Shown here piece after piece: positions 1,200 to 14,866 of a DNA stretch of 64,000 nt. The stretch is from an uncultured Pseudomonadota bacterium. GTDB taxonomy: Bacteria; Oederibacteriota; Muellerivitia; Muellerivitales; Muellerivitaceae. Made by a program: the position numbers and the translations under genes. The stretch is from contig CAVYRH010000003.1 in the NCBI GenBank assembly GCA_963770835.1, positions 96,001 through 160,000 of the forward strand, read 5' to 3'. Numbering within the stretch: the stretch's first letter is position 1; each line of letters starts with the position of its first letter. The notes under the pieces were generated by a model, which was not told the origin of the DNA, did no database searches, and worked only from the letters and a program-made list of their open reading frames with translations.

Positions 1200-2368
<1,169 letters not shown>

Positions 2369-2369
2369 T

Positions 2370-5246
2370 ACTTCCTATACCGATCCGGCAGGGAGGTCGT
2401 TCAAATACGCTTATGCGGCCAACGGTATCGACCTGACCAGCGTGACGGATAGCCAAGGCGACCAACTTTGGGCCGGGCAGTACAATTCCATGCATCAGCA
2501 AGTGGTAGTTACGAATGTTGCCGGAAAAAGTTGGCACTATTCCTACAATGGCTTTGGACAGCCGACAGGAATTACGGCTCCTTTAGGTGAAACGACAACT
2601 TTAAATTACGACACTAGTAATCAGCTTTCTTCCCTGATCCCACCCCAGTCCGGGGCTGGTGTGACCTTAGGTTACGATACTCTTGGCCGAGTGCAAAATA
2701 TTAGCAGTGCGGACAAAGGAACGGTTAACTACGCTTACGACGACGGGAACCGTTTGACTCAGGCTAATTACCCGGATGGAACCACTGCCGGGTTAGGATA
2801 TACCAACTGGACCCTGACCAGCGCCCAGGATCGCCTGGGCCAGACTACGAGCTTCAGCTACGATTCCAACCAACGGTTAACGAGCTCGAGAACCCCCAAC
2901 CAACAGACCACTCAATACGGTTGGAGCGCGGGGGGAGGGTTAAGCTCTCTAGCCGATCCAGCTGGAAACCAAACAAGTTATCAACGCGACCTAATGGGGA
3001 GGGTGCTGAACAAAGCTTCTTCCGATGGGTCACAATATTCCTATCGTTATGGTTCCAACGGCGGCATGCTTTCGCAAGTGACTGACCCGTTGGGCCAGGT
3101 GACCCAATATTCACACACCGTGGATGGAAAGATTTTGGGGGTTAATTATCAGAACACCCAAAACCCCACCCCTGGTACTACCTACCAATATGATTCAGTC
3201 TTGGGCAGGGTGGCAACAATGGTGGATGGAACCGGTTATACGACCTATTCCTACAACCCTGTGGGCCAGGTTGGTGGTGGATTGTTGAAATCGGTTGCAA
3301 GCCCCGTTGGCCAAACCACAGCTTTCACCACTTATGCCTACGACAGCGACGGAAGAGTGGTGCAAAGGGCCATTGACGGCGTCCCGGAGACCTATACCTA
3401 TAATTCCCAAGGCCAATTGGTGGAAGTGACCAACCCCCTGGGGGACCCCAAGTTGAGTTATGACTCAAACACGGGAAGGCTGGTTTCGGTGGCCGACAGC
3501 ACAACGGGACAAGCGACCCAATACGAATATTATAATCCTACTGATCCAAACGGGGCTTCAGGACGTTTGAAAAGCATTACCAACTTGAATAAGAGCAACC
3601 AGGCCGTTTCGTCCTTTAATTACTCCTATGACCAGCTTGGACGAATCACCAATTGGGGCCAGAGCCAAGGTGGGACGTCAAAAACCTATGCCGTTGGCTA
3701 CAATCCCGCAAACCAATTGAAGGGGGTGACGATGGTTTCGGGCACCAATGGATTCGATGGCCTCACAGCGGGCCAGGTCGTAAGTTATCAGTACGATAGG
3801 GCGGGAAATCGGGTGTCCGAAAATACTCCCACTTACCAAAATGGTTTTGGCACACCTAACAATCTTAACCAATTGAATCAAGTATCCTCAAACCCCCTGT
3901 CGATGAGCTTGATTACGGATAATTCGCCCGGTGAAGCGGCCCAGATCAATGGCCGGATGGCCCCGATTTCTGGTAATGGCACGGTAGCCTCCAGTATTGT
4001 GCCCAGCGCGAGTAGCACGACAACCAGCGCCGAGGTGGTGCTGACGGAACCCAACGGGGCCACCACCGCTGTGGGTGTAACCCTCCTCAACAAACAGCCC
4101 GTAAGTTTCGATGCCAATGGTAACTGCACTTCTGACAATCAGTACAGTTACGTGAGTGATGGGGTGAACCGGCCCATTGCTATCAATAACGGAAATGTCC
4201 TGCCCGGCGGTACGGCAGACACATTGGTTATGAAATACGACGGTAAAGGGAGGCGGGTGGGACTCACGGCCTTAAATTTGGGTGGGCCGGTGACGAACTT
4301 AAATCAACTTTCAGGTGCAGCCACGGTCTCGGGCAAGACTTATGTGTGGTGTGGGAACAGGATTTGTGAGGAAAGAGACGCAACAGGCAAACAGGTACTC
4401 AAAAGGTTCTTTTCCAACGGCGAGCAAGACAATGGACAAAACCTGTACTATACAAAGGACCATCTGGGAAGTGTTCGTGAGGTGATGGATGCTTCCGGAA
4501 ACATCCAAGGTCAGTTTGATTATGATCCGTGGGGCAGGCAGACCCAAATAGCCGGAACTATGCAGCCTTCGTTTGGCTACACTGGTCATTTTCAGGAACC
4601 GACGACAGGGTTACTGCTTTCCAAATATCGTGTCTATAACGCGGATATGGGAAGGTGGACATCGGGAGACCCAAAAGGGCAGGTCGCGGGAGCAAACATT
4701 TATTCTTATGTCAGGAATAATCCGCTTGGTAAGATTGATCAACTTGGGTTAGATGGTGATGATTACGAATCGTCTGATAACACATCGGATGAAGATACTA
4801 GTGACAATACTGTGGCTGTGGCTGGTGGAATTTTAAAATCATTTGCTGGGGTGGTTGATTTTGTTTATGGAGCGGGTGAAGTTGCTTTGTCATTAGCAGA
4901 TGAGGGAACTACAGCCCCACTTGGTGTTCTTACAATGGGCACGGGTTTTTATGATATGGTGACCGGAGCAATTCAAACGGGCGTCGATCTTGCTGGGAAT
5001 AATTATGTAGTCGATCCGGCAAGTCAACTTTTGGAACAAAAAGGATTTAGAGATTTGGGTCCAATGTTGTGGACCAGTCAGGTAGGGCTAGATGCTCTCC
5101 AAGGTACTACTGGAAATATTATTGGAGGTCTTTTAGATTTTGGAGGAATCAGTTGCGACTATGTGGCATTGCAAACTGGAGCTCAATATTATTGTCCTTT
5201 TTTGGGAACAAGCACCCCTGAAAAAAATCCATGGTATAGACACTAA
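2370..5246 (+). CDS. Rhs/YD-repeat protein with Rhs-associated core and variable C-terminal toxin domain (5' part lost)
   Basis: YD repeats (YDTLGRV, YDSDGRV), core motifs YYTKDHLGSVR, DYDPWG, FGYTGH, NIYSYVRNNPLGKIDQLGL. The frame is open upstream of 2442 (TSYTDPAGRSFKYAY). Confidence 0.93.
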   Translation, partial: TSYTDPAGRSFKYAYAANGIDLTSVTDSQGDQLWAGQYNSMHQQVVVTNVAGKSWHYSYNGFGQPTGITAPLGETTTLNYDTSNQLSSLIPPQSGAGVTLGYDTLGRVQNISSADKGTVNYAYDDGNRLTQANYPDGTTAGLGYTNWTLTSAQDRLGQTTSFSYDSNQRLTSSRTPNQQTTQYGWSAGGGLSSLADPAGNQTSYQRDLMGRVLNKASSDGSQYSYRYGSNGGMLSQVTDPLGQVTQYSHTVDGKILGVNYQNTQNPTPGTTYQYDSVLGRVATMVDGTGYTTYSYNPVGQVGGGLLKSVASPVGQTTAFTTYAYDSDGRVVQRAIDGVPETYTYNSQGQLVEVTNPLGDPKLSYDSNTGRLVSVADSTTGQATQYEYYNPTDPNGASGRLKSITNLNKSNQAVSSFNYSYDQLGRITNWGQSQGGTSKTYAVGYNPANQLKGVTMVSGTNGFDGLTAGQVVSYQYDRAGNRVSENTPTYQNGFGTPNNLNQLNQVSSNPLSMSLITDNSPGEAAQINGRMAPISGNGTVASSIVPSASSTTTSAEVVLTEPNGATTAVGVTLLNKQPVSFDANGNCTSDNQYSYVSDGVNRPIAINNGNVLPGGTADTLVMKYDGKGRRVGLTALNLGGPVTNLNQLSGAATVSGKTYVWCGNRICEERDATGKQVLKRFFSNGEQDNGQNLYYTKDHLGSVREVMDASGNIQGQFDYDPWGRQTQIAGTMQPSFGYTGHFQEPTTGLLLSKYRVYNADMGRWTSGDPKGQVAGANIYSYVRNNPLGKIDQLGLDGDDYESSDNTSDEDTSDNTVAVAGGILKSFAGVVDFVYGAGEVALSLADEGTTAPLGVLTMGTGFYDMVTGAIQTGVDLAGNNYVVDPASQLLEQKGFRDLGPMLWTSQVGLDALQGTTGNIIGGLLDFGGISCDYVALQTGAQYYCPFLGTSTPEKNPWYRH

Positions 5247-6351: not shown

Positions 6352-6590
6352 TTAGTTAGAAGAACCCGGAGTTTCGCCGAGAAGGTTAGAATTTTTGTCC
6401 AGCGATTGGTTGAGTTGGCTGATCTGGTCGGGTGTCAGTGAATGGCTCTTGTTCTGTTTGAAAAAAGTAAATTCCTGTAAACGGATATTCCTCAAGCTGG
6501 CCCTAACGCTTTGGGCTTGTTCCTTGGAGAATTTTCCGGATTTTACCCCCGTCTGGGTTAATTTCATTTGCGTTTTGACCCGTTGGTTTT
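6352..6590 (-). pseudogene. 3' remnant of an unrelated small protein gene fused to the truncated transposase
   Basis: QRVKTQMKLTQTGVKSGKFSKEQAQ...LTPDQISQLNQSLDKNS looks like real protein sequence but has no own start; lies in a different frame from the transposase. Confidence 0.4.
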
Positions 6591-7115
6591 TTGTTCCACC
6601 ATCGCGTTTCTCAAACGCACCACTTGCCGATCCGCTTCTTCCTGGAGGGTTGGGATCGCCACAGCCCGCAAGAGATCCTTTTCGGCGTACTCCGCCAGCT
6701 TGCGGCAGTCCAACCGGTCGGATTTTGTTTCCAACTGAGCTACACGAGGTGTTTTGTTCGGGGCGATGACGTCCAATGGGTATCCCACTTCCCGAAGGCG
6801 ACGTGCCAAGCCAAAGCCAGTAGGTCCTGCCTCGTAGACGACCTTTTTTAACCCTTTTCGGTAAGGCTCCAGAACCTTCACCACAGCTTCCCAATCCGCG
6901 GGCACAGACTTGGTTCCGGTTTCCTTTCCATTGATCCTGATTGCTACGTAAATACTTCGTTTGTGGACATCGAGCCCCACAAACACGGCGTCCCGCTTGG
7001 ATACCTCCTTGCCTTGGAATCCTTTTTTGCTAATCTGTTTCATGGTCATTCCTCCTTATGAGTGGCTACTCACCGGGAATAGTTTAATCCCGGCGGTGGA
7101 ATGGCCATCATGTTA
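6564..7115 (-). mobile_element. Truncated IS110-family (IS1111-type) element: left end plus N-terminal DEDD/RuvC domain only
   Basis: FVGLDVHK, VVYEAGPTGFGLAR, KSDRLDCRKLA. Sub-terminal inverted repeats at 7042-7052 and 7098-7108 (10/11 match). C-terminal domain absent. Confidence 0.88.
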
Positions 7116-7117
7116 CC

Positions 7118-7145
7118 TGTCCACGACGGGGACCCGTCGTGGACA
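7118..7145 (+). repeat. 28-bp 11-6-11 palindromic site R1
   Basis: TGTCCACGACG GGGACC CGTCGTGGACA. Confidence 0.95.
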
Positions 7146-7215
7146 GGGGGAGAAGTAAAGAATTGTTCACCGTGTGTAAAAAAGAGGATTTGATGACCTA
7201 TTTGGATTTAAAACA

Positions 7216-7740
7216 TTGAAAGCATTTATCATCGTTTTGATGGCTCTATTGGCTGTCAGTGTATTTTGGGAAGTTGCATCGGGGTTCTCTAAAAAACTTT
7301 TGACCAAAGATATGAATAGGATCATACAGTCTGGTTTACGCGTAAATCGCAGTTGGTTCCACCGATTGGAAAGGTTGTTAAATATACCAATCCTTTTTTC
7401 GATATATATTATTCAAATGGAATCGGTCTGGTTCCTTCGTGGGACCATCTACCCCAACCCAATGTCACTCTACCAATGGATTTGGAAACTGGTTACCAGT
7501 CCACCGGATAATCACTCGACCTTAATAGCTTTCTTGATCGCTGTTCCGGCCTTGTTTTCTTCGATCCCCCTTTCAATGGTACTTTTTAATCTGATGGAAT
7601 GGTGTATTCCGCCCCTTCGGAGATTATCTGACGCAAAAACCGGCTTTACCTTTTTGGAAGTCATGTCCCCCATGATCGCTTTAACCCTTTTGATTGTCCC
7701 TGTTTGTTTATTTTTTCAACTGCTAGGCGCTTTGGTTTAA
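7216..7740 (+). CDS. Hypothetical multi-pass membrane protein (unit 1)
   Basis: 174 aa, about four hydrophobic segments, AT-rich, between R1 and R2. Confidence 0.65.
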   Translation: MKAFIIVLMALLAVSVFWEVASGFSKKLLTKDMNRIIQSGLRVNRSWFHRLERLLNIPILFSIYIIQMESVWFLRGTIYPNPMSLYQWIWKLVTSPPDNHSTLIAFLIAVPALFSSIPLSMVLFNLMEWCIPPLRRLSDAKTGFTFLEVMSPMIALTLLIVPVCLFFQLLGALV

Positions 7741-7768
7741 AGATTTAAAATCTGAGGACGAAAAGACT

Positions 7769-7796
7769 TGTCCACGACGGGGACCCATCGTGGACA
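7769..7796 (+). repeat. 28-bp site R2
   Basis: TGTCCACGACG GGGACC CATCGTGGACA. Confidence 0.95.
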
Positions 7797-8033
7797 GGAA
7801 AAAGATTGCAGAAGGCAATTAAATACGAGGAGGGCGGGGGCCAGCAAAGAAACTTTTACGGAGCTTCATTTTGCGGGCCTAGAATCAGAAAATTCGAGAT
7901 TGTGATGGAAGAAGCCGGGGTGCATTGTAAAATGAGAGACAAGTTACCCAGCAACGTTGCCGGAAAAGGTTATCTGGGAAACTCTGGTTAATCCAACTAG
8001 AGTATTTAGAATCCAAATTGAGGGGGTAATTAA

Positions 8034-8393
8034 ATGCGTTATTTGATAAGCATTGTTTTGTTAATTGCAACGACCGGGTGCGGCACCCTATTTAATAGAA
8101 ATCTAAAACCCGTAATGTTGGATTCTGATCCTCAAGGTGCCGATGTCTATGTAGATGGTAATCGTGTCGGTAAAACCCCAATAAATGTCGAGATGGAAAA
8201 AAAGCATTCTGCAAATTTAACTTTTAAAAAAGAAGGGTATGAAGAAAAAACTGCAATAATTCAATCTCAATTAGTGCCAGGTTTATTGATTCTTGATCTC
8301 TTTGGATTAGTTCCTTTAGTGGTTGATGCTGCAACGTCAAATTGGAATGATCTTGATAAAGGAAATCTCAAAGTTTTGCTGGACAAAAAATAG
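8034..8393 (+). CDS. PEGA-domain lipoprotein (unit 2)
   Basis: Lipobox TTGC; SDPQGADVYVDGNRVGKTP is a PEGA signature; GAGGGG RBS. Confidence 0.85.
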   Translation: MRYLISIVLLIATTGCGTLFNRNLKPVMLDSDPQGADVYVDGNRVGKTPINVEMEKKHSANLTFKKEGYEEKTAIIQSQLVPGLLILDLFGLVPLVVDAATSNWNDLDKGNLKVLLDKK

Positions 8394-8460
8394 TTTTGAT
8401 AACAAAGAGTCGAACCTTAAGAAGAACAAACAGGGTTAGACACTTTCCATTTTGTCCGTA

Positions 8461-8503
8461 ACAAAAGAACCCGACTTGGGGATAAGTCGGGTTCTTTTGT
8501 TTT
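8461..8503 (+). terminator. Intrinsic terminator
   Basis: 17-bp stem ACAAAAGAACCCGACTT/AAGTCGGGTTCTTTTGT with T tail. Confidence 0.75.
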
Positions 8504-8533
8504 ACCGTCTTTTTGAAAAACCTATAAATTAGT

Positions 8534-8561
8534 TGTCCACGACAGGGACCCGCCGTGGACA
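8534..8561 (+). repeat. 28-bp site R3
   Basis: TGTCCACGACA GGGACC CGCCGTGGACA. Confidence 0.95.
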
Positions 8562-8676
8562 AAGCAAAATGGATTAGGGTGGCCTGAACCCGATTTTTAA
8601 TAACGATAAGGTAACTTTGCCGGCTGTGTAAGCCGAGTAGATAAATAAAGTTGATAGAATTCAATTGAGGCTGGAA

Positions 8677-9993
8677 ATGGAATCCCCACAGACAAACGCG
8701 CATCCGAAAGCACTCCTGTTTTCGGTCAGGACGCCCAAGGTGACTGATACCGAAGCGATGGAATCAATGATCGAGCTCGAACGGCTGGTGACGACCTTGG
8801 GTTACGAGGTGACCGGAACTATGTCCCAGCGGCAACCCAGCACAAAAGGGGTCACTGTGGTGGGTGAGGGAAAACTGATGGAACTCGCCCAACTCACCGG
8901 TGGAAAGGGCTACCGGGATAGGGTTAAGGGGAACTCCGAAGCGCCAAAACAGGCGCAAGTCCCGGCCTCGACTCCCGATGGACCCGCGATGGTTGTTTTT
9001 GACTGTGATTTGAGCCCGTCCCAGATTCGTAACGTCGAAGAGGCTTTGGGGGTTCCGGTGCTCGATCGAACCGGGGTGATTATCGAAATCTTCAACCGCC
9101 ACGCGAAGACCCGGGCGGCGCGGCTCCAGGTCGATATCGCGCGCCAAACCTATCAGGCTCCCCGTCTCAGGGATATGGGGGTGGGCAAGGAACGCCAGTC
9201 CGGCCGAGGATCCGGGGAAACCGTCATCGAGACGGAAAAGCGCAAAGTCCGCGACCGCCTGGCTGAGCTGAGGCACGAGTTACAAGCGGTTCAAAGGGAA
9301 GAGGAGCAACGCCGGATGAAACGCGCGGAACTGCTCGGCGCCGTGCTCGTGGGCTACACGAATGCCGGAAAATCATCCCTCATGCGGGCGCTGACCGGCA
9401 GCGACGTCCTGGTGGAGGACAAGCTCTTCGCGACCCTGGATACGACGATACGCGCCCTACAACCAGAGACCCAGCCGAGAATCCTGATCACCGATACGGT
9501 GGGTTTTATCCACAAGCTTCCGCACGACCTGGTGGCGTCCTTCCGCTCCACGCTGGATGAGGCCCGCGGCGCCGCCCTGCTTCTTTACGTGGTGGATGCC
9601 GCTGATCGCAACTTTCGTTCCCAGCTCGCGGTGGTTCGGGAAGTTTTGGGTGATATTGGCGCCGACAAAACGCCATATCTTCTCATTCTCAATAAGGCCG
9701 ACTGCTTGAGCGAATGGCAGAAGCAGGTTCTCAGGGCGGAGTATCCGGACGCGGTTTTAACCTCGACCCGCAGTCCCGAGGACATGCGGGGCGTTAGTGA
9801 ACGCATTATTCATTTTTTCGAGAAAGACATGATTGAAAAGGAGATTCTCGTTCCCTATAAAGCCCAAGGCGTCATCAGCGAAATGCGTTTGAATATGAAA
9901 ATCTTGAGGGAGAGTTTTGTTGAAGAAGGCGTTCTGCTTCTTGTTCGCGCCCGTCCGATTGACCTTCAGCGCTTGAGTAAAATGATGAAATAG
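8677..9993 (+). CDS. hflX: GTPase HflX (unit 3)
   Basis: LVGYTNAGKSSL, DKLFATLDTT, TDTVGFIHKLPHDLVASFRSTL, NKAD. Confidence 0.93.
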   Translation: MESPQTNAHPKALLFSVRTPKVTDTEAMESMIELERLVTTLGYEVTGTMSQRQPSTKGVTVVGEGKLMELAQLTGGKGYRDRVKGNSEAPKQAQVPASTPDGPAMVVFDCDLSPSQIRNVEEALGVPVLDRTGVIIEIFNRHAKTRAARLQVDIARQTYQAPRLRDMGVGKERQSGRGSGETVIETEKRKVRDRLAELRHELQAVQREEEQRRMKRAELLGAVLVGYTNAGKSSLMRALTGSDVLVEDKLFATLDTTIRALQPETQPRILITDTVGFIHKLPHDLVASFRSTLDEARGAALLLYVVDAADRNFRSQLAVVREVLGDIGADKTPYLLILNKADCLSEWQKQVLRAEYPDAVLTSTRSPEDMRGVSERIIHFFEKDMIEKEILVPYKAQGVISEMRLNMKILRESFVEEGVLLLVRARPIDLQRLSKMMK

Positions 9994-10054
9994 TGCCCTG
10001 CGGTGTGTCCCGGACGGGCCCGCAAGCTCGGCCGATAAGAAATTGTCCACGACG

Positions 10055-11995
10055 GTGCGTCCAGAAAAGGCAGGTGTGTTCAGCAAGAGATAGTCTTGCA
10101 TGGGTAATAGCCAAAGCCCATTAGCTAGGATGGCAGGCAAGCGGGAAACCAAATGCCTGAAGCCCATCAACAAAGCCATCGAAAGGATGGTGAGCGAGTC
10201 GTCGGGCCGTAACGAAAGTAAATGCACAGGTGGCCCCGAAAACACTTGCCTCGGAGGCTGAGTCCGCCGTCGTGGGACGAAAGCATCATGGGACAGCGCG
10301 GAGAAATGGCTGAAGCGCTGGAACACTCCGACGGGGTGATAGCAACGGCACGAAGACAAGGACACGCCAAGCAACTGGAGAAACCCTCCTTGCCCCAGGC
10401 AGAAATGCTTGGAGAAAGGTAGGCCGTATAACCGTGACGCGGGAAAACGGTCGAAGGTGAGAGGGTTTAGGATGGGTTCATGGTAGCGATGAAGCGGGGT
10501 AATGCCCGTGGAGCGAAGGAACCCTGCTGTTGTTAAGTCCCTCGACAAAACGGAAGGCAGTGACGGTATGAAAAAGACGTCAATTAACCTGCAAGACCTG
10601 AGACGAGAGATATACGTCAAAGCGAAGGCTGAAAAGAACTGGAGTTTCTGGGGACTGTACACCCATGTTTGCAAGATGGAAACGCTTCAACAGGCTTACC
10701 GAATGGCTAAGGTAAATAACGGAGCCCCTGGAATAGATGGGGTGACGTTTGATGCCATTGAGGAGGCCGGAGTGGAGTCGTTTCTGGAAAGCATCCGGGG
10801 TGAATTAGTTCAAGGCACGTATAAGCCCGTTCGAAACCGGAAGAAGGAAATACCCAAGGGAAATGGGAAGGTAAGAGTCCTTGGGATACCCAACATTCGG
10901 GATAGAGTAGTCCAGGGAGCACTGAAGTTTATTCTGGAACCGATTTTTGAGGCCGATTTTCAAGAAGGGTCCTATGGGTATCGACCCAAGCGGACCGCTC
11001 ATGCGGCTGTGAACAGGGTAGCATCGGCAATCGTCTGTAGAAAAACCCGAGTCATTGATGTAGACCTCAAGGCATATTTCGACACGGTAAGGCACGACCT
11101 TCTGATGAAGAAAGTTGCCCGAAGGGTTGAGGATGAAACGGTGTTGAGATTGTTGAGGATGATCCTGAAGGCCAGCGGCAAAAGAGGAGTCCCGCAGGGA
11201 GGGGTTATTTCCCCTCTTCTGGCTAATCTCTACCTCAACGAGGTGGATAAGATGCTGGAAAAGGCAAAAGAAGTGACTCGGCAAGGGAAGAACAACTATA
11301 TCGAATATGCGAGGTTCGCTGACGATATGGTGATCCTTGTTAATGGATATCCGCAATGGGAATGGTTGGCAAAGGCTGCCTACCGAAGGTTACTTGAAGA
11401 ATTGACCAAGCTCGACTTGCAAATCAACACGGACAAGACGCGGATAGCAGACTTAACGAAAGGTGAAAGTTTCGGGTTTCTGGGGTTTGACTTTCGACAG
11501 GTGAAAACCCGTCGAGGGAAATGGGGGGTGAAGTTCACGCCGAAAATGAAGGCGCGAGCAACACTTCTGGGTAAGCTCAAGGAAACATTTGGAAGCTTCC
11601 AATCTCAGCCGGTGCAGAGGGTGATTGAGATTATCAATCCCAAACTGCGTGGGTGGGTGAATTACTTTCGGATAGGGAATTCTAGGCGCTGTTTTAACTA
11701 CGTGGAAAGATGGGTCGAGAATAAAATCAGACGGCATATGATGCGTGCGAAGAAGCTCGACGGTTTTGGGCGGGATAGGTGGAGTAGGGAGTGGATATAT
11801 AAGTATCTGGGGTTGTACAGAAGCTACCAAATACGATATTACCAAGAACCGAAAGCGCTACCCGTCTGATAGGTCACATAAACTTTGACAGGAAAGCAAC
11901 AGGTGAGCGTAGTGCGGGAAATCCGCACGCTACGTTCGAGGAGGCGGGGACTGGAAACGGAGCCAGAAGGCCACCGCACCAGTCCTCGACCCTAC
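10055..11995 (+). mobile_element. Full-length group II intron (tentatively bacterial class E-like)
   Basis: 5' GTGCG; domain V GAGCGTAGTGCGGGAAATCCGCACGCTACGTTC; domain VI ending CGACCCTAC; exon joining restores the repeat exactly. Confidence 0.93.
10568..11869 (+). CDS. ltrA: Group II intron reverse transcriptase/maturase, no HNH endonuclease domain
   Basis: GAPGIDG, RVLGIPNIRDRVVQ, SYGYRP, GVPQGGVISPLLAN, YARFADD, LRGWVNYF. Confidence 0.95.
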   Translation: MKKTSINLQDLRREIYVKAKAEKNWSFWGLYTHVCKMETLQQAYRMAKVNNGAPGIDGVTFDAIEEAGVESFLESIRGELVQGTYKPVRNRKKEIPKGNGKVRVLGIPNIRDRVVQGALKFILEPIFEADFQEGSYGYRPKRTAHAAVNRVASAIVCRKTRVIDVDLKAYFDTVRHDLLMKKVARRVEDETVLRLLRMILKASGKRGVPQGGVISPLLANLYLNEVDKMLEKAKEVTRQGKNNYIEYARFADDMVILVNGYPQWEWLAKAAYRRLLEELTKLDLQINTDKTRIADLTKGESFGFLGFDFRQVKTRRGKWGVKFTPKMKARATLLGKLKETFGSFQSQPVQRVIEIINPKLRGWVNYFRIGNSRRCFNYVERWVENKIRRHMMRAKKLDGFGRDRWSREWIYKYLGLYRSYQIRYYQEPKALPV

Positions 11996-12053
11996 GGGAC
12001 CTGTCGTGGACAAAAAAATAAGGCGGAAGATACTATTCAAGTGGAGGAAGGGA

Positions 12054-14234
12054 ATGATGATGATCGGATTCAGATTACTCATGGATATGGCAAAGGGACA
12101 CCGGTATTGGATGTCCGCGGCGGCCCTTTTCGGCCTCGTGCCGCCCTTAGGGGCCGCGACCTACTATGTCTCCCCTTCCGGGAATGATGCCGGTCCCGGA
12201 AGCCAAACCCAACCCTTCGCCTCCCCGCAAACCGCCGTCACTCACCTGGCGCCCGGCGACACCCTGGTGTTCCGGCAAGGGACTTACTACGGTTCCATTA
12301 TTGTCCCCCAATCCGGATCAGCCGCATCCCCCATCACCCTGGAAGCCTATCCGGGTGAAACGCCGCTACTCGACGGCGCCGGTCCCGTCACCGGTGCTTG
12401 GAGCCATTACCAGAGTTCCATTTACCGCGCCCCTTGGGCTTCCCAGCCCGCCCAGGTTTTCTGTGACGGCCACCTTCTGAATGAAGCCCGCTGGCCCGCC
12501 GCCGAGGTGGAGGGCCTCAGCCACCAACCCGTGGCCCTCGCTGACTCGGGGTCGGCCAGCCAGGTCACCTGCGCCAATCTTCCCCGGGTGGACCTGACCG
12601 GCGCCCTCATCCAGCTCATGGCGGGCCAATCCTGGTGCTCCTATACCCGTACCATCGTTTCCCATGACCGGCCTAGGGGCTCCCTGGTTTTTGATTCCCC
12701 GGTGAGCGAAATGGCAGCCTTGGTGCCGCGCCGGGGAACCCGTTTCTACGTCTTCGGCAAACTCAACCTCTTAACCGCGCCGGGGGAGTGGTATTGGGAC
12801 CCGCAAAAAAAAGAACTTTACGCCTGGACCCCGGATGGCGCCCCGCCCCAAGGCCGCGTGGAGGCCGGGGACGCTTCCCCGGTCCTGTCCCTGGACGGAC
12901 AGTCTTATATCACGGTCAAGGGGCTGCAGGCCCGGGGCGGATGGTTTTCCCTTTCCAACAGTTCCCATTGCACCGTCCAGGATTGCCGCCTTATCGCCCC
13001 CAATTGGACGAGAATGATGAATGGTTACGTCACCAAACCCGCGACCCTGGGCGGCATCGACATTTCCGGCGCCGACAACCAATGCCTGGGCGGGTCGGTG
13101 GTCTTCGCGGGGCGCAGCGGCGTCGATCTTTCCGGCGGAAGCGGCCACCTGGTCAAGGGCATGAACGTGGAGGATTGCGGCTGGAACTGGGGCAATGACG
13201 GGGGCATCCACGTGATCCACGCCGACCAGTGCGTTGTCCAATCCTGTACCGTCCGGCGGGTGGCCCGGGTGGGCATCTTCGACTATTACTCCACCTCCTG
13301 CCGGTTCCTCAACAACCTAGTCGAGGACGTCTGCCTTTACAGCGACGACGTGGGCAATTTCGACTCTTGGGGCACGGACGGCAAGGGCAGTGAAATCGCC
13401 TACAACCTCATGCGCGGCAACCGCGGCATGTGGGGCGCGGGCATCTACCTGGACGACAACGCCAAGGGCTTCAATGTCCACGACAACGTGGTCGAGGATT
13501 GCGCCTGGTACGGCTTTAAATTCAGCGATGTGGATAGGCTCGAAAACAACACCGCGTTAGGTCCGGGCCACGGGGCCCTTTACTGCTCCCAGCCCGCGAG
13601 CAAGGACCTGACCGGCTCCAAGGTGGCCCATAACCGGTTCCGGGAAACCTTCCCGGTGCGGGTCAACTTCAACCAGGCCTCGGTCACCGATTATGGTTAC
13701 TACGGGGGCTACGCCTACCTGGGCGCCCCCGGCCGCGTGGAGGTGGATTGGGGCCAATTGGAACAGCCTTGGTGGGCGGTAAAGGTTCCGCTCGACTTAA
13801 CCCAGATCCCTACCATCGCCTTCAGCATTGAATGCCTGGCCGACTCCTTTACCTTCACGGTGGCCAATTTGCGGCTCCTGCCCAAGGGCCTAAAGGGGGA
13901 TGACGGCGCCGTGACCCTGGCGGGAAACTGGTTTTCCTACGCCGGGCAGGGCGCTACCTCCACCTTGAGCCTTTCGGGTCCGGCGACCTGGGGCGCGACC
14001 GGAAAAACCGTCGTGGGCGGCTGGAACTCCACCGGCCTTCCCCTCACCGGCAGCCAGAGGGACCTGACCGCCTACCGGGGACTCGCCTTTGAGATCGGCG
14101 GAACCGCCGTGATGAAATACAACCTGAATGGATGCGTCGACGAGGATAACGGCCCCGATCCCAAGCCGGGCCGGGGCGCCAGCCTGCCCATCACCGTGGG
14201 GGCCGAAGGGTTAAGGGTCGGGCCGGTCCCCTAA
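12054..14234 (+). CDS. Secreted right-handed beta-helix protein with probable C-terminal carbohydrate-binding region (unit 4)
   Basis: TYYVSPSGNDAGPGSQTQPF, PGEWYWD, GIYLDD; markedly GC-rich. Confidence 0.8.
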   Translation: MMMIGFRLLMDMAKGHRYWMSAAALFGLVPPLGAATYYVSPSGNDAGPGSQTQPFASPQTAVTHLAPGDTLVFRQGTYYGSIIVPQSGSAASPITLEAYPGETPLLDGAGPVTGAWSHYQSSIYRAPWASQPAQVFCDGHLLNEARWPAAEVEGLSHQPVALADSGSASQVTCANLPRVDLTGALIQLMAGQSWCSYTRTIVSHDRPRGSLVFDSPVSEMAALVPRRGTRFYVFGKLNLLTAPGEWYWDPQKKELYAWTPDGAPPQGRVEAGDASPVLSLDGQSYITVKGLQARGGWFSLSNSSHCTVQDCRLIAPNWTRMMNGYVTKPATLGGIDISGADNQCLGGSVVFAGRSGVDLSGGSGHLVKGMNVEDCGWNWGNDGGIHVIHADQCVVQSCTVRRVARVGIFDYYSTSCRFLNNLVEDVCLYSDDVGNFDSWGTDGKGSEIAYNLMRGNRGMWGAGIYLDDNAKGFNVHDNVVEDCAWYGFKFSDVDRLENNTALGPGHGALYCSQPASKDLTGSKVAHNRFRETFPVRVNFNQASVTDYGYYGGYAYLGAPGRVEVDWGQLEQPWWAVKVPLDLTQIPTIAFSIECLADSFTFTVANLRLLPKGLKGDDGAVTLAGNWFSYAGQGATSTLSLSGPATWGATGKTVVGGWNSTGLPLTGSQRDLTAYRGLAFEIGGTAVMKYNLNGCVDEDNGPDPKPGRGASLPITVGAEGLRVGPVP

Positions 14235-14337: not shown

Positions 14338-14365
14338 TGTCCACGACGGGGACCCGCATTGGACA
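14338..14365 (+). repeat. 28-bp site R5
   Basis: TGTCCACGACG GGGACC CGCATTGGACA. Confidence 0.9.
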
Positions 14366-14838: not shown

Positions 14839-14866
14839 TGTCCACGATGGGGAGCCGCCGTGGACA
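14839..14866 (+). repeat. 28-bp site R6 (array end)
   Basis: TGTCCACGATG GGGAGC CGCCGTGGACA. Confidence 0.9.

Follow-up and report, generated by a model that had tools for sequence, protein, structure and literature searches.

A class F/g2 group II intron that appears to retrohome by base pairing into the palindrome bounding gene cassettes

Introduction

The window analysed here, a stretch of 64,000 nucleotides from an uncultured Pseudomonadota bacterium (assembly GCA_963770835.1, contig CAVYRH010000003.1, positions 96,001 to 160,000), carries gene cassettes separated by copies of a 28-bp inverted repeat (R1 to R6), one of which, R4, is interrupted by a group II intron. The locus raises the question of how an intron came to lie at one particular base of a cassette-bounding site, and what its presence does to that site. 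Our answer, drawn from comparative sequence analysis, is very probably that an intron of class F, group g2, retrohomes into the palindrome by pairing through its exon-binding sites (EBS).

A complete group II intron interrupts R4

The intron comprises 1941 nt (10055-11995, forward strand), starts with GTGCG, ends with CCCTAC, and cuts R4 into TGTCCACGACG (10044-10054) and GGGACCTGTCGTGGACA (11996-12012). This interruption, proposed by a first-pass annotation of the window, was borne out by identical boundaries in all 12 copies of the intron in the genome. One further target, an insertion sequence (IS), exists in empty and occupied copies with the same intron ends and no target duplication. Because the empty copy is 100% identical to the occupied one, the intron ends are fixed and the insertion must be recent. 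The element has all hallmarks of a group II intron, with GUGYG...AY ends, domains I-VI and a reverse transcriptase (RT)/maturase encoded in domain IV. Rfam family RF02003 (group-II-D1D4-4) matched at 10081-10217 with 121 bits, and RF00029 matched domains V-VI at 11903-11979 with 39.9 bits, just below the gathering score of 40. The RT scored 378 bits against TIGR04416 (cut-off 300), and RVT_1 and GIIM were the only Pfam domains in its 433 amino acids, which confirms the annotated lack of an HNH domain. Judged from its sequence, the intron is complete and recently active. Scanning 7000-12200 for promoters and terminators gave signals at chance level. The parts of the interrupted site and of the intron are as follows, the putative alpha-prime/alpha contact resting on complementarity and the minimum-free-energy (MFE) fold, not on covariation (IBS, intron-binding site).

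10044..10054 (+): left part of R4, site positions 1-11, with IBS2 TGT at 10044-10046 and IBS1 CACGACG at 10048-10054
10055..11995 (+): group II intron of class F/g2 type, 1941 nt, 12 copies in the genome
10242..10244 (+): EBS2 (ACA), placed by covariation; C at 10245 gives a fourth pair at the IS target only
10262..10278 (+): EBS1 stem-loop; EBS1 at 10268-10274 (CGUCGUG), delta at 10267, delta-prime at 10232
10294..10320 (+): stem-loop with terminal loop TGGCT (10307-10311), complement of AGCCA (10109-10113); putative alpha-prime/alpha, an IIE/IIF feature, from sequence and MFE fold
10339..10339 (+): EBS3 (A), covarying with exon position +1; mismatch to G at +1 of the site, match to T at +1 of the IS target
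10568..11869 (+): RT/maturase, 433 aa, YARFADD, endonuclease-less, 49% identical to B.th.I3
11905..11937 (+): domain V, 33 nt, AGC triad, 5-nt GAAAU loop
11938..11995 (+): domain VI, bulged A at 11989
11996..12012 (+): right part of R4, site positions 12-28, GA core at 11998-11999; G at +1 unpaired with EBS3

Target recognition by EBS1 and EBS2

For the analysis of target recognition, we collected relatives of the intron from genomes and metagenomes and aligned their domain I, which yielded 65 distinct rows; the mutual-information count used 59 introns, with seven rows of shifted or doubtful boundaries dropped that were kept in the 65-row counts. The stem GTCC/GGAC at 10262-10278, which is present in the MFE fold and whose four pairs are conserved in 63-65 of the rows, displays the loop GCCGUCGUG. 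Within it, CGUCGU (10268-10273) is the exact complement of the ACGACG preceding the insertion point. By mutual information, exon positions -1 to -7 paired best with the columns 10268-10274, at a Watson-Crick share of 0.80-0.97, and 22 of 24 introns with loops other than the domain-V type (see below) matched their own exon at 5/6 positions or more, compared to a mean of 3.2 and a maximum of 9 in 2000 permutations. Because of this covariation and these exon matches, we assign the loop as EBS1 with a length of 7 nt, which places CGUCGU in the EBS1 position as originally claimed. The adjoining delta/delta-prime pair (10267-10232) is canonical in 65/65 rows, corresponding to the IIB mode.

EBS2 was assigned to columns 10242-10244, which covary with exon positions -9 to -11 (Watson-Crick share 0.63-0.83). 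An initial candidate, GGACA at 10291-10295, was rejected because it is not conserved in relative L001 and covariation favours 10242-10244. Between them, the 7 nt of EBS1 and the 3 nt of EBS2 can pair with 10 of the 11 bases that precede the insertion in the site. Among the other repeats of the window, R1, R2 and R5 retain ACGACG, and R3 (ACGACA) has a true mismatch, both as annotated; R6, listed with R3 as mismatched, reads ACGATG and instead forms a G-T wobble of the kind found in targets used by the relatives L161 and L177.

7118..7145 (+): R1, intact consensus site; the end of an IS110 element abuts at 7117
7769..7796 (+): R2
8534..8561 (+): R3, A at position 11 as IBS1 mismatch
14338..14365 (+): R5
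14839..14866 (+): R6, T at position 10 and G at position 16

Class and ancestry of the intron

By its sequence features, the intron belongs to group g2 of class F (taken widely) and lacks an endonuclease. In a tree built without RT matches under 330 aa, its RT grouped with B.th.I3, the reference for g2 (local support 0.958), and stood apart from the g3, g1 and D references; the composition of this tree, in which each group has a single reference and class C, class E, g4 and basal F have none, weighs against the assignment. RT domain 5 reads YARFADD and no endonuclease domain is present, FADD being given as characteristic of class F group g2 (PMC3552965; this and the other papers are cited for the parts available). 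The g2 introns B.th.I3, Mx.xa.I1 and W.e.I5 likewise have an RT-X protein without endonuclease, FADD, a length of about 433 aa and an intron size of about 1.94 kb (PMC3552965), and IIF/g2 introns share the 33-nt domain V, its 5-nt loop and EBS1 plus EBS2 (PMC3552965, PMC3753933). A 5-nt domain V loop and an alpha-prime in a terminal loop are described as IIE/IIF features (PMC3753933). Class E, first suggested by the loop, was dropped on the grounds of the FADD motif, the tree and the class E sequences in the supplement of PMC7923331, which read YLHYALDLWF...YADD, unlike this RT (compared by eye, the tree having no class E row). The annotated impression that domain V is not of class C was correct: the triad is AGC instead of CGC, domain V has 33 nt, EBS1 is 7 nt long and accompanied by a covarying EBS2, and the copies lie in sense orientation (10/10) in a 28-mer that is not attC.

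In at least 33 of the 65 sampled g2 relatives, the insertion point is the 3' base of the catalytic domain V of another group II intron, the recipients being of several types, and about five more such insertions were recognised by eye. These relatives (L006-L158, e.g. the 5' exons of L010, L017, L020 and L058) carry EBS1 loops resembling AACCGU/AUCCGU. Five RTs of 94-100% identity, all located in the 28-bp site, form a clade with support 1.0; a larger clade, again with support 1.0, additionally includes four RTs from the same family and five from metagenomes and is nested among RTs of domain-V-targeting introns. Because half of the relatives sampled are insertions into domain V, retargeting from domain V to the site would be recent and confined to one bacterial family. 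The lineage would thus have derived from g2 introns mostly homing into domain V, by a few changes in the EBS1 and EBS2 loops.

Copies, relatives and target preference

A search for further copies, as the first-pass annotation had envisaged, returned 12 in the genome, 11 identical and one at 99.95%. Ten of these lie at the same base of the 28-bp palindrome in the same orientation, sense to the cassettes, and the other two are antisense in an IS5-type DDE transposase, at GGTGTCGTCGACG^TGG; this IS is present in nine copies (8 at ≥99% and 1 at 92%), of which the intron occupies two. In two of the site copies, C3:1721 and C24, the upstream sequence is the same over the whole 1720 bases available, and for a third, C11, there are 10 upstream bases, so we count 8-9 independent site insertions; the flanks of the other site copies are unrelated.

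Ten same-family or close metagenomic relatives carry the CGUCGUG loop (L079, L080, L160, L161, L166, L177, L165, L164, L162 and the second tandem unit of L165; window excluded, duplicates merged), and seven of them lie at the same base of the site. The 5' junction of L164 is shifted by 3-4 nt and ends at the GA core, and L162 occupies a wobble-paired non-site with one extra C at the 5' junction. In L165 (G014:C7), two derivatives without open reading frame (ORF), each starting with GCGCG, stand head to tail at one site whose right half is missing. The relatives with this loop include ORF-less forms of 776 and 828 nt. Both loops, CGUCGUG and AACA, stay constant over domain I identities between 100% and about 83%, across several genera and in ORF-less derivatives as well. 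The exon flanks show the CGUCGUG-loop clade holding to the site, but beyond about 84% RT identity the targets are unrelated, many of them the domain V insertions described above. As a finder of other arrays, a further use foreseen for it, the intron disappointed: an A-type intron was at the site in 6 of 26 site-bearing relatives, a pattern search performed better, and distant homologues point elsewhere.

The notion of a site-specialist intron therefore survives in part. The intron homes repeatedly to the site (10/12 copies in 8-9 events), but it also occupies 2/9 IS copies, and the same-family introns L163 and L003 have been retargeted, with other loops and other targets. Several observations weigh against specialisation. 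The occupancy of the IS (2/9) is not below that of the site (10/95; Fisher p 0.25, with 9/94), EBS3 is mismatched at 10/10 site insertions and fits the IS instead, and 54 of 85 empty sites have a perfect EBS1 and EBS2 match on their top strand yet are unoccupied. The pairing total is equal for site and IS target, 10 each. These points leave room for an opportunist without lasting tie to cassettes, whose loops happen to fit a 10-nt motif and which finds in the array sites the commonest match. The 29 different EBS1 hexamers among the 65 relatives, L163 and L003 included, indicate that retargeting is easy and agree with this explanation, which we nevertheless consider doubtful: the constancy of the two loops down to about 83% identity, together with the C at EBS3 of deeper site-targeting relatives, which matches G at +1 of the site, suggests a long association. 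The site preference may mostly reflect target abundance, and "preferred multi-copy target" is a safer description than "strict specialist".

Strand use and consequences of insertion

All insertions are in the top strand, although 22 empty sites match EBS1 and EBS2 perfectly on the bottom strand. Within the genome, this bias is weak (p ~0.06 for nine events), which counts against reading much into it; adding six relatives lowers the chance to about 0.008, with the same ratio assumed and kinship ignored. All targets of this intron known at both ends have G at +2 and +3, and the bottom strand of the site has T at +3. The RT would thus read G at +3 and thereby confine insertion to one of two strands that are nearly symmetric, an explanation for which we see the arguments evenly divided. 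Bottom-strand insertions as such are tolerated, since a second intron lineage (see below) uses both strands in G027 (3/6).

Neither junction of the intron rebuilds a site: the left arm agrees with the last 11 nt of the intron at 1 position, and the right part agrees with its first 17 nt at 3. For this reason, an occupied site should be dead and its neighbouring cassettes fused, with recombination plausibly blocked. Against this consequence, no fused cassette was found to have moved with the intron inside it. Because the intron is intergenic and in cassette orientation, transcription from the upstream hflX cassette is possible. It would be transcribed by read-through from there and then splice, and the excised intron would reverse-splice into the top strand of another site. 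Lacking an endonuclease, it would be primed at a replication fork. Judged from the sequence comparison, delta/delta-prime pairing frees EBS3 for the 3' exon, and retrohoming would follow the standard IIB route. Under the serine recombinase model outlined below, the insertion would part the left arm from the core, inactivate the site and fuse the cassettes on both sides.

8665..9993 (+): cassette of an HflX-type GTPase, upstream of the intron
12006..14234 (+): cassette of a beta-helix protein, downstream of the intron

The real start of the beta-helix ORF is probably the ATG near 12055, behind a GGAGG resembling a ribosome-binding site. In the relative genome G004 (L277), the end of the hflX cassette is followed by an intact empty site and a different cassette.

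The 28-bp site and its candidate recombinase

The inverted repeat consists of two 13-bp arms around two bases, TGTCCACGACGGG GA CCCGTCGTGGACA; the annotated insertion exactly at the arm/spacer junction is true only if the repeat is parsed as 11-6-11. A 17-mer of the site had nine matches in the window versus 0.19 expected, and 88 intact sites were present genome-wide (≤7 mismatches) versus one in each of two shuffles. In silico removal of the intron leaves 95 sites; the intervals shorter than 8 kb number 64, and 63 of 65 neighbouring sites are co-oriented. The content of most intervals is a single co-oriented gene or a pair resembling a toxin-antitoxin system, and a cassette of 885 nt recurs at four places, so co-oriented single-gene cassettes move as units as in integrons. 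In G004, the R3 variant travels with the upstream PEGA cassette. The site pattern was found in 26/30 same-family genomes, in the one order mate and in 0/29 other members of the phylum searched. A cassette at three places of the genome (G000 C3:47167, C15:17231 and C16:35972) holds a 346-aa ORF followed by a short ORF, a pair that may be Cas1/Cas2-like, judging from motifs recognised by eye.

For the analysis of site conservation, we assembled 322 sites from this genome and 40 stretches of eight relatives. Positions 12, 13, 14 and 15 vary in 3, 3, 4 and 7 sites, respectively, and position 16 varies in 44, which leaves a near-invariant asymmetric dinucleotide (G14 in 318/322, A15 in 315/322) between the inverted arms. 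Cassette swaps, in which 17 pairs of sites have a common downstream cassette and 23 a common upstream cassette while the other sides are unrelated, place the exchange point firmly within 12-17 and weakly within 12-15.

The only resolvase-family gene of the genome codes for a 275-aa serine recombinase (L229:1471-2298, G000 C17) and lies 14 nt from a convergent site; its product has the catalytic and recombinase domains but neither a zinc-ribbon tail nor a coiled-coil part. Among 25 resolvase-family loci, 5/5 full-length short serine recombinase genes and three fragments end 8-34 nt from a convergent site, one of which is intron-occupied, and a convergent site was found beside 0/17 of the other loci (the first of two adjacency screens covered all of the 25 loci but three short fragments). 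These short serine recombinase loci at array ends are L229, L239, L240, L244, L245, L263, L265 and L267. Because positions 12-15 are near-invariant, position 16 is variable and this recombinase abuts the arrays, a 2-bp GA core at 14-15 is favoured, and we consider it rather likely that the site is the 13-GA-13 crossover site of the short serine recombinase. Under this model, the intron probably sits 2 nt before the crossover core. In a model of large serine recombinases, contacts of the recombinase domain reach bp 11-12, and the zinc-ribbon motif covers bp 11-19 or 16-24 (PMC3783163); by analogy, catalytic and recombinase domains alone would need arms of about 13 bp, as present here. The att sites of large serine recombinases also have a central crossover dinucleotide (PMC3783163), but their enzymes differ from the 275-aa protein without zinc-ribbon and coiled-coil parts, and the sites here are identical array repeats rather than an attP/attB pair. 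The short recombinase is 55% identical to full-length tRNA-integrating recombinases, and the gene upstream of it in G000 is presumably ArdC-like.

Four points weigh against the serine model: the evidence for confining the crossover to 12-15 consists of column conservation plus a single pair with a flank identity of 0.88, a full ORF of the short recombinase is present in 4/30 same-family genomes, 19/30 of them have no resolvase-family match although most carry sites, and a single-copy Xer-like tyrosine recombinase (L189:7054-8118, G000 C11; below the XerC/XerD cut-offs) has the same phylogenetic spread as the site (29/30 family genomes, 1/1 order mate, 0/29 other phylum members). The site could accordingly be read as an Xer/dif-like tyrosine-recombinase site of 11-6-11, with the intron exactly at the top-strand cleavage position. 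The geometry of dif is 11-6-11 in 28 bp, which fits, and the firm interval of 12-17 is compatible as well. Nevertheless, we regard this reading as unlikely: the variation at position 16 compared to 12-15 is unexpected for a 6-bp overlap that needs identity, there is no site near the Xer-like gene in 12 genomes, at ≤3 mismatches no site is present in four genomes with the gene (completeness 82-97%), a correlation with the site would be expected of any family-specific core gene, and the short serine recombinase is adjacent in 8/8 cases. We also rejected the site as chromosomal dif of the Xer-like gene, given that no site lies beside the gene, that arrays occur even in genomes with low counts and that the GC skew is too noisy for locating a terminus.

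No integron integrase was found above the TIGR02249 cut-off among 8 of 12 tyrosine recombinases scanned, the C10 trio and the C26 fragment being outside the scan. The genome contains six paralogous tyrosine integrases of 55-80% identity (C5:241383, C5:233290, C10:70284, C1:7328, C2:210367 and C26:882158), one of which lies about 0.7 kb downstream of the consensus site C26:881437, and three more in a row at C10:6765-10013.

Comparison with known intron targets

The closest parallel is provided by the IIC-attC introns, which are also parasites of cassette-bounding sites that offer a multi-copy safe target and lack an endonuclease (PMC7923331, PMC4424553). They belong to class C, with a CGC triad, an EBS1 of 3-4 bp, no EBS2, hairpin-guided insertion and antisense orientation in attC (PMC7923331, PMC4424553), in contrast to the g2 intron described here with its AGC triad, 7+3-bp pairing, sense orientation and a 28-bp non-attC site, in a genome without an integron integrase above the cut-off among those scanned. 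A structure-guided mode as in these introns, in which the ribonucleoprotein recognises the hairpin of the single-stranded palindrome, appears very improbable here. A hairpin of 14 bp is indeed predicted for the site (-18.5 kcal/mol when the flanks are included), a weak one of 5 bp lies upstream in the IS target, and the targets in domain V are likewise hairpins; however, the intron has a 7-nt EBS1 and a covarying EBS2 unlike class C, it inserts inside the 5' strand of the stem and not after it, the hairpin would hide IBS1 and IBS2, and the non-palindromic targets of relatives pair equally well.

The intron UHB.I2 (CL1/IIB1) and class E fragments are also non-class-C, IIB-like and inserted into a cassette array in cassette orientation (PMC7923331). 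According to the available part of the same source, they differ in class and site, being single cases next to attC with poorly conserved exons and no homing to the site shown. RmInt1-type introns homing into IS elements resemble the present case in lacking an endonuclease and in using EBS/IBS pairing for a repeated, harmless target (PMC5894124, PMC4424553), and homing into other introns is known from the Methanosarcina twintrons (PMC5894124, PMC4424553, PMC12584367); the target here differs in being a host cassette-recombination site, with domain V as the probable ancestral target. Hosts of g2 introns listed in the available part of PMC3552965 are transposases or non-coding DNA, none of them in a recombination site. 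Nagy et al. (2013) suggested that EBS2, which splicing can do without, serves homing (PMC3753933), which the covarying EBS2 of this lineage fits.

In our literature searches, to which subscription papers were mostly closed, we found no description of this site, of the intron-site pairing or of homing into domain V. The mechanism of the intron is known and its chemistry ordinary; the cassette site is undescribed in the literature searched, and the EBS map, the ancestry, the strand bias and three further parasites of the site are new. The case is one of convergence: group II introns are drawn to cassette boundaries here too, with a site, an enzyme and an intron class that all differ from those of integrons and IIC-attC introns, and plain base pairing suffices. 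By changing a few loop bases, such an intron would pass from homing into other introns to homing into host recombination sites. The pairs of EBS and target that occur naturally among the relatives offer direct comparative evidence for a role of EBS2 and EBS3 of class F in homing, a question left open in the accessible part of the study of Nagy et al., and the insertion point and strand bias provide sharp tests of how the candidate cassette recombinase reads its site.

Contigs from soil metagenomes

In three of four public soil runs, one of which may be the source sample, contigs of the intron had roughly 8-10 times the depth of its flanks, a depth that is no copy number. In runs X1 and X7, loose ends of contigs match the junctions of other copies, among them the two in the IS. 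One X7 contig skips exactly 10055-11995, which suggests an empty R4 allele; its short side of 29 letters is below the bar of 31, as are the 18 letters of an X2 contig linking hflX to the intron, so neither was counted. That the copies are an assembly artefact or were passively multiplied by duplication of cassettes or segments, as the roughly 1-kb poly-T artefact in the window, the common upstream sequence of C3:1721 and C24 and the short flank of C11 might suggest, is hardly credible, given the unrelated flanks of the remaining copies, the junctions and depth in other runs and the insertions that relatives carry of their own. The artefact itself consists of about 1 kb of poly-T/poly-A within an RHS gene (window 1310-2370). 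Viral contigs contained no intron junction, no site and no relative of the recombinase.

Other parasites of the same 28 bp

Three further elements use other positions of the site. With medium confidence, we propose that one bacterial family has independently evolved an integron-like capture system, based on a truncated serine recombinase and a 13-GA-13 site, together with a guild of parasites: the g2 intron, reprogrammed from domain V, would use one strand only, destroy the site and freeze the cassette order, and a second intron lineage, IS110 and a 64-bp mini-element would use other positions, the first two leaving the site intact.

The second intron lineage has a YADD-type RT and is mostly ORF-less with about 0.8 kb. 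Of its 17 junctions, 15 adjoin the outer end of the right arm, where it leaves the site intact; it is also present at 4/10 sites occupied by the g2 intron. Constant extra bases outside its GUGCC and CUAC ends (TC/GC before, TCTGCA after) suggest shifted splice sites, and some copies hold IS110. An end of IS110 abuts the outer edge of the site in 4/5 cases, at either arm, one of them at R1. IS1111 elements target attC, which is a parallel to IS110 at the site edge. The mini-element, about 64 bp long and rich in hairpins, follows site position 10 with an apparent AC duplication in 4/4 copies.

G000 C3:39445, C11:109926 and 15 more; L299-L301: second intron lineage
Window 6564-7117; G000 C3:45354, C3:81947 and C8:165098: IS110 abutting sites
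G000 C5:308118, C5:317908, C11:105383 and C11:115068: 64-bp mini-element

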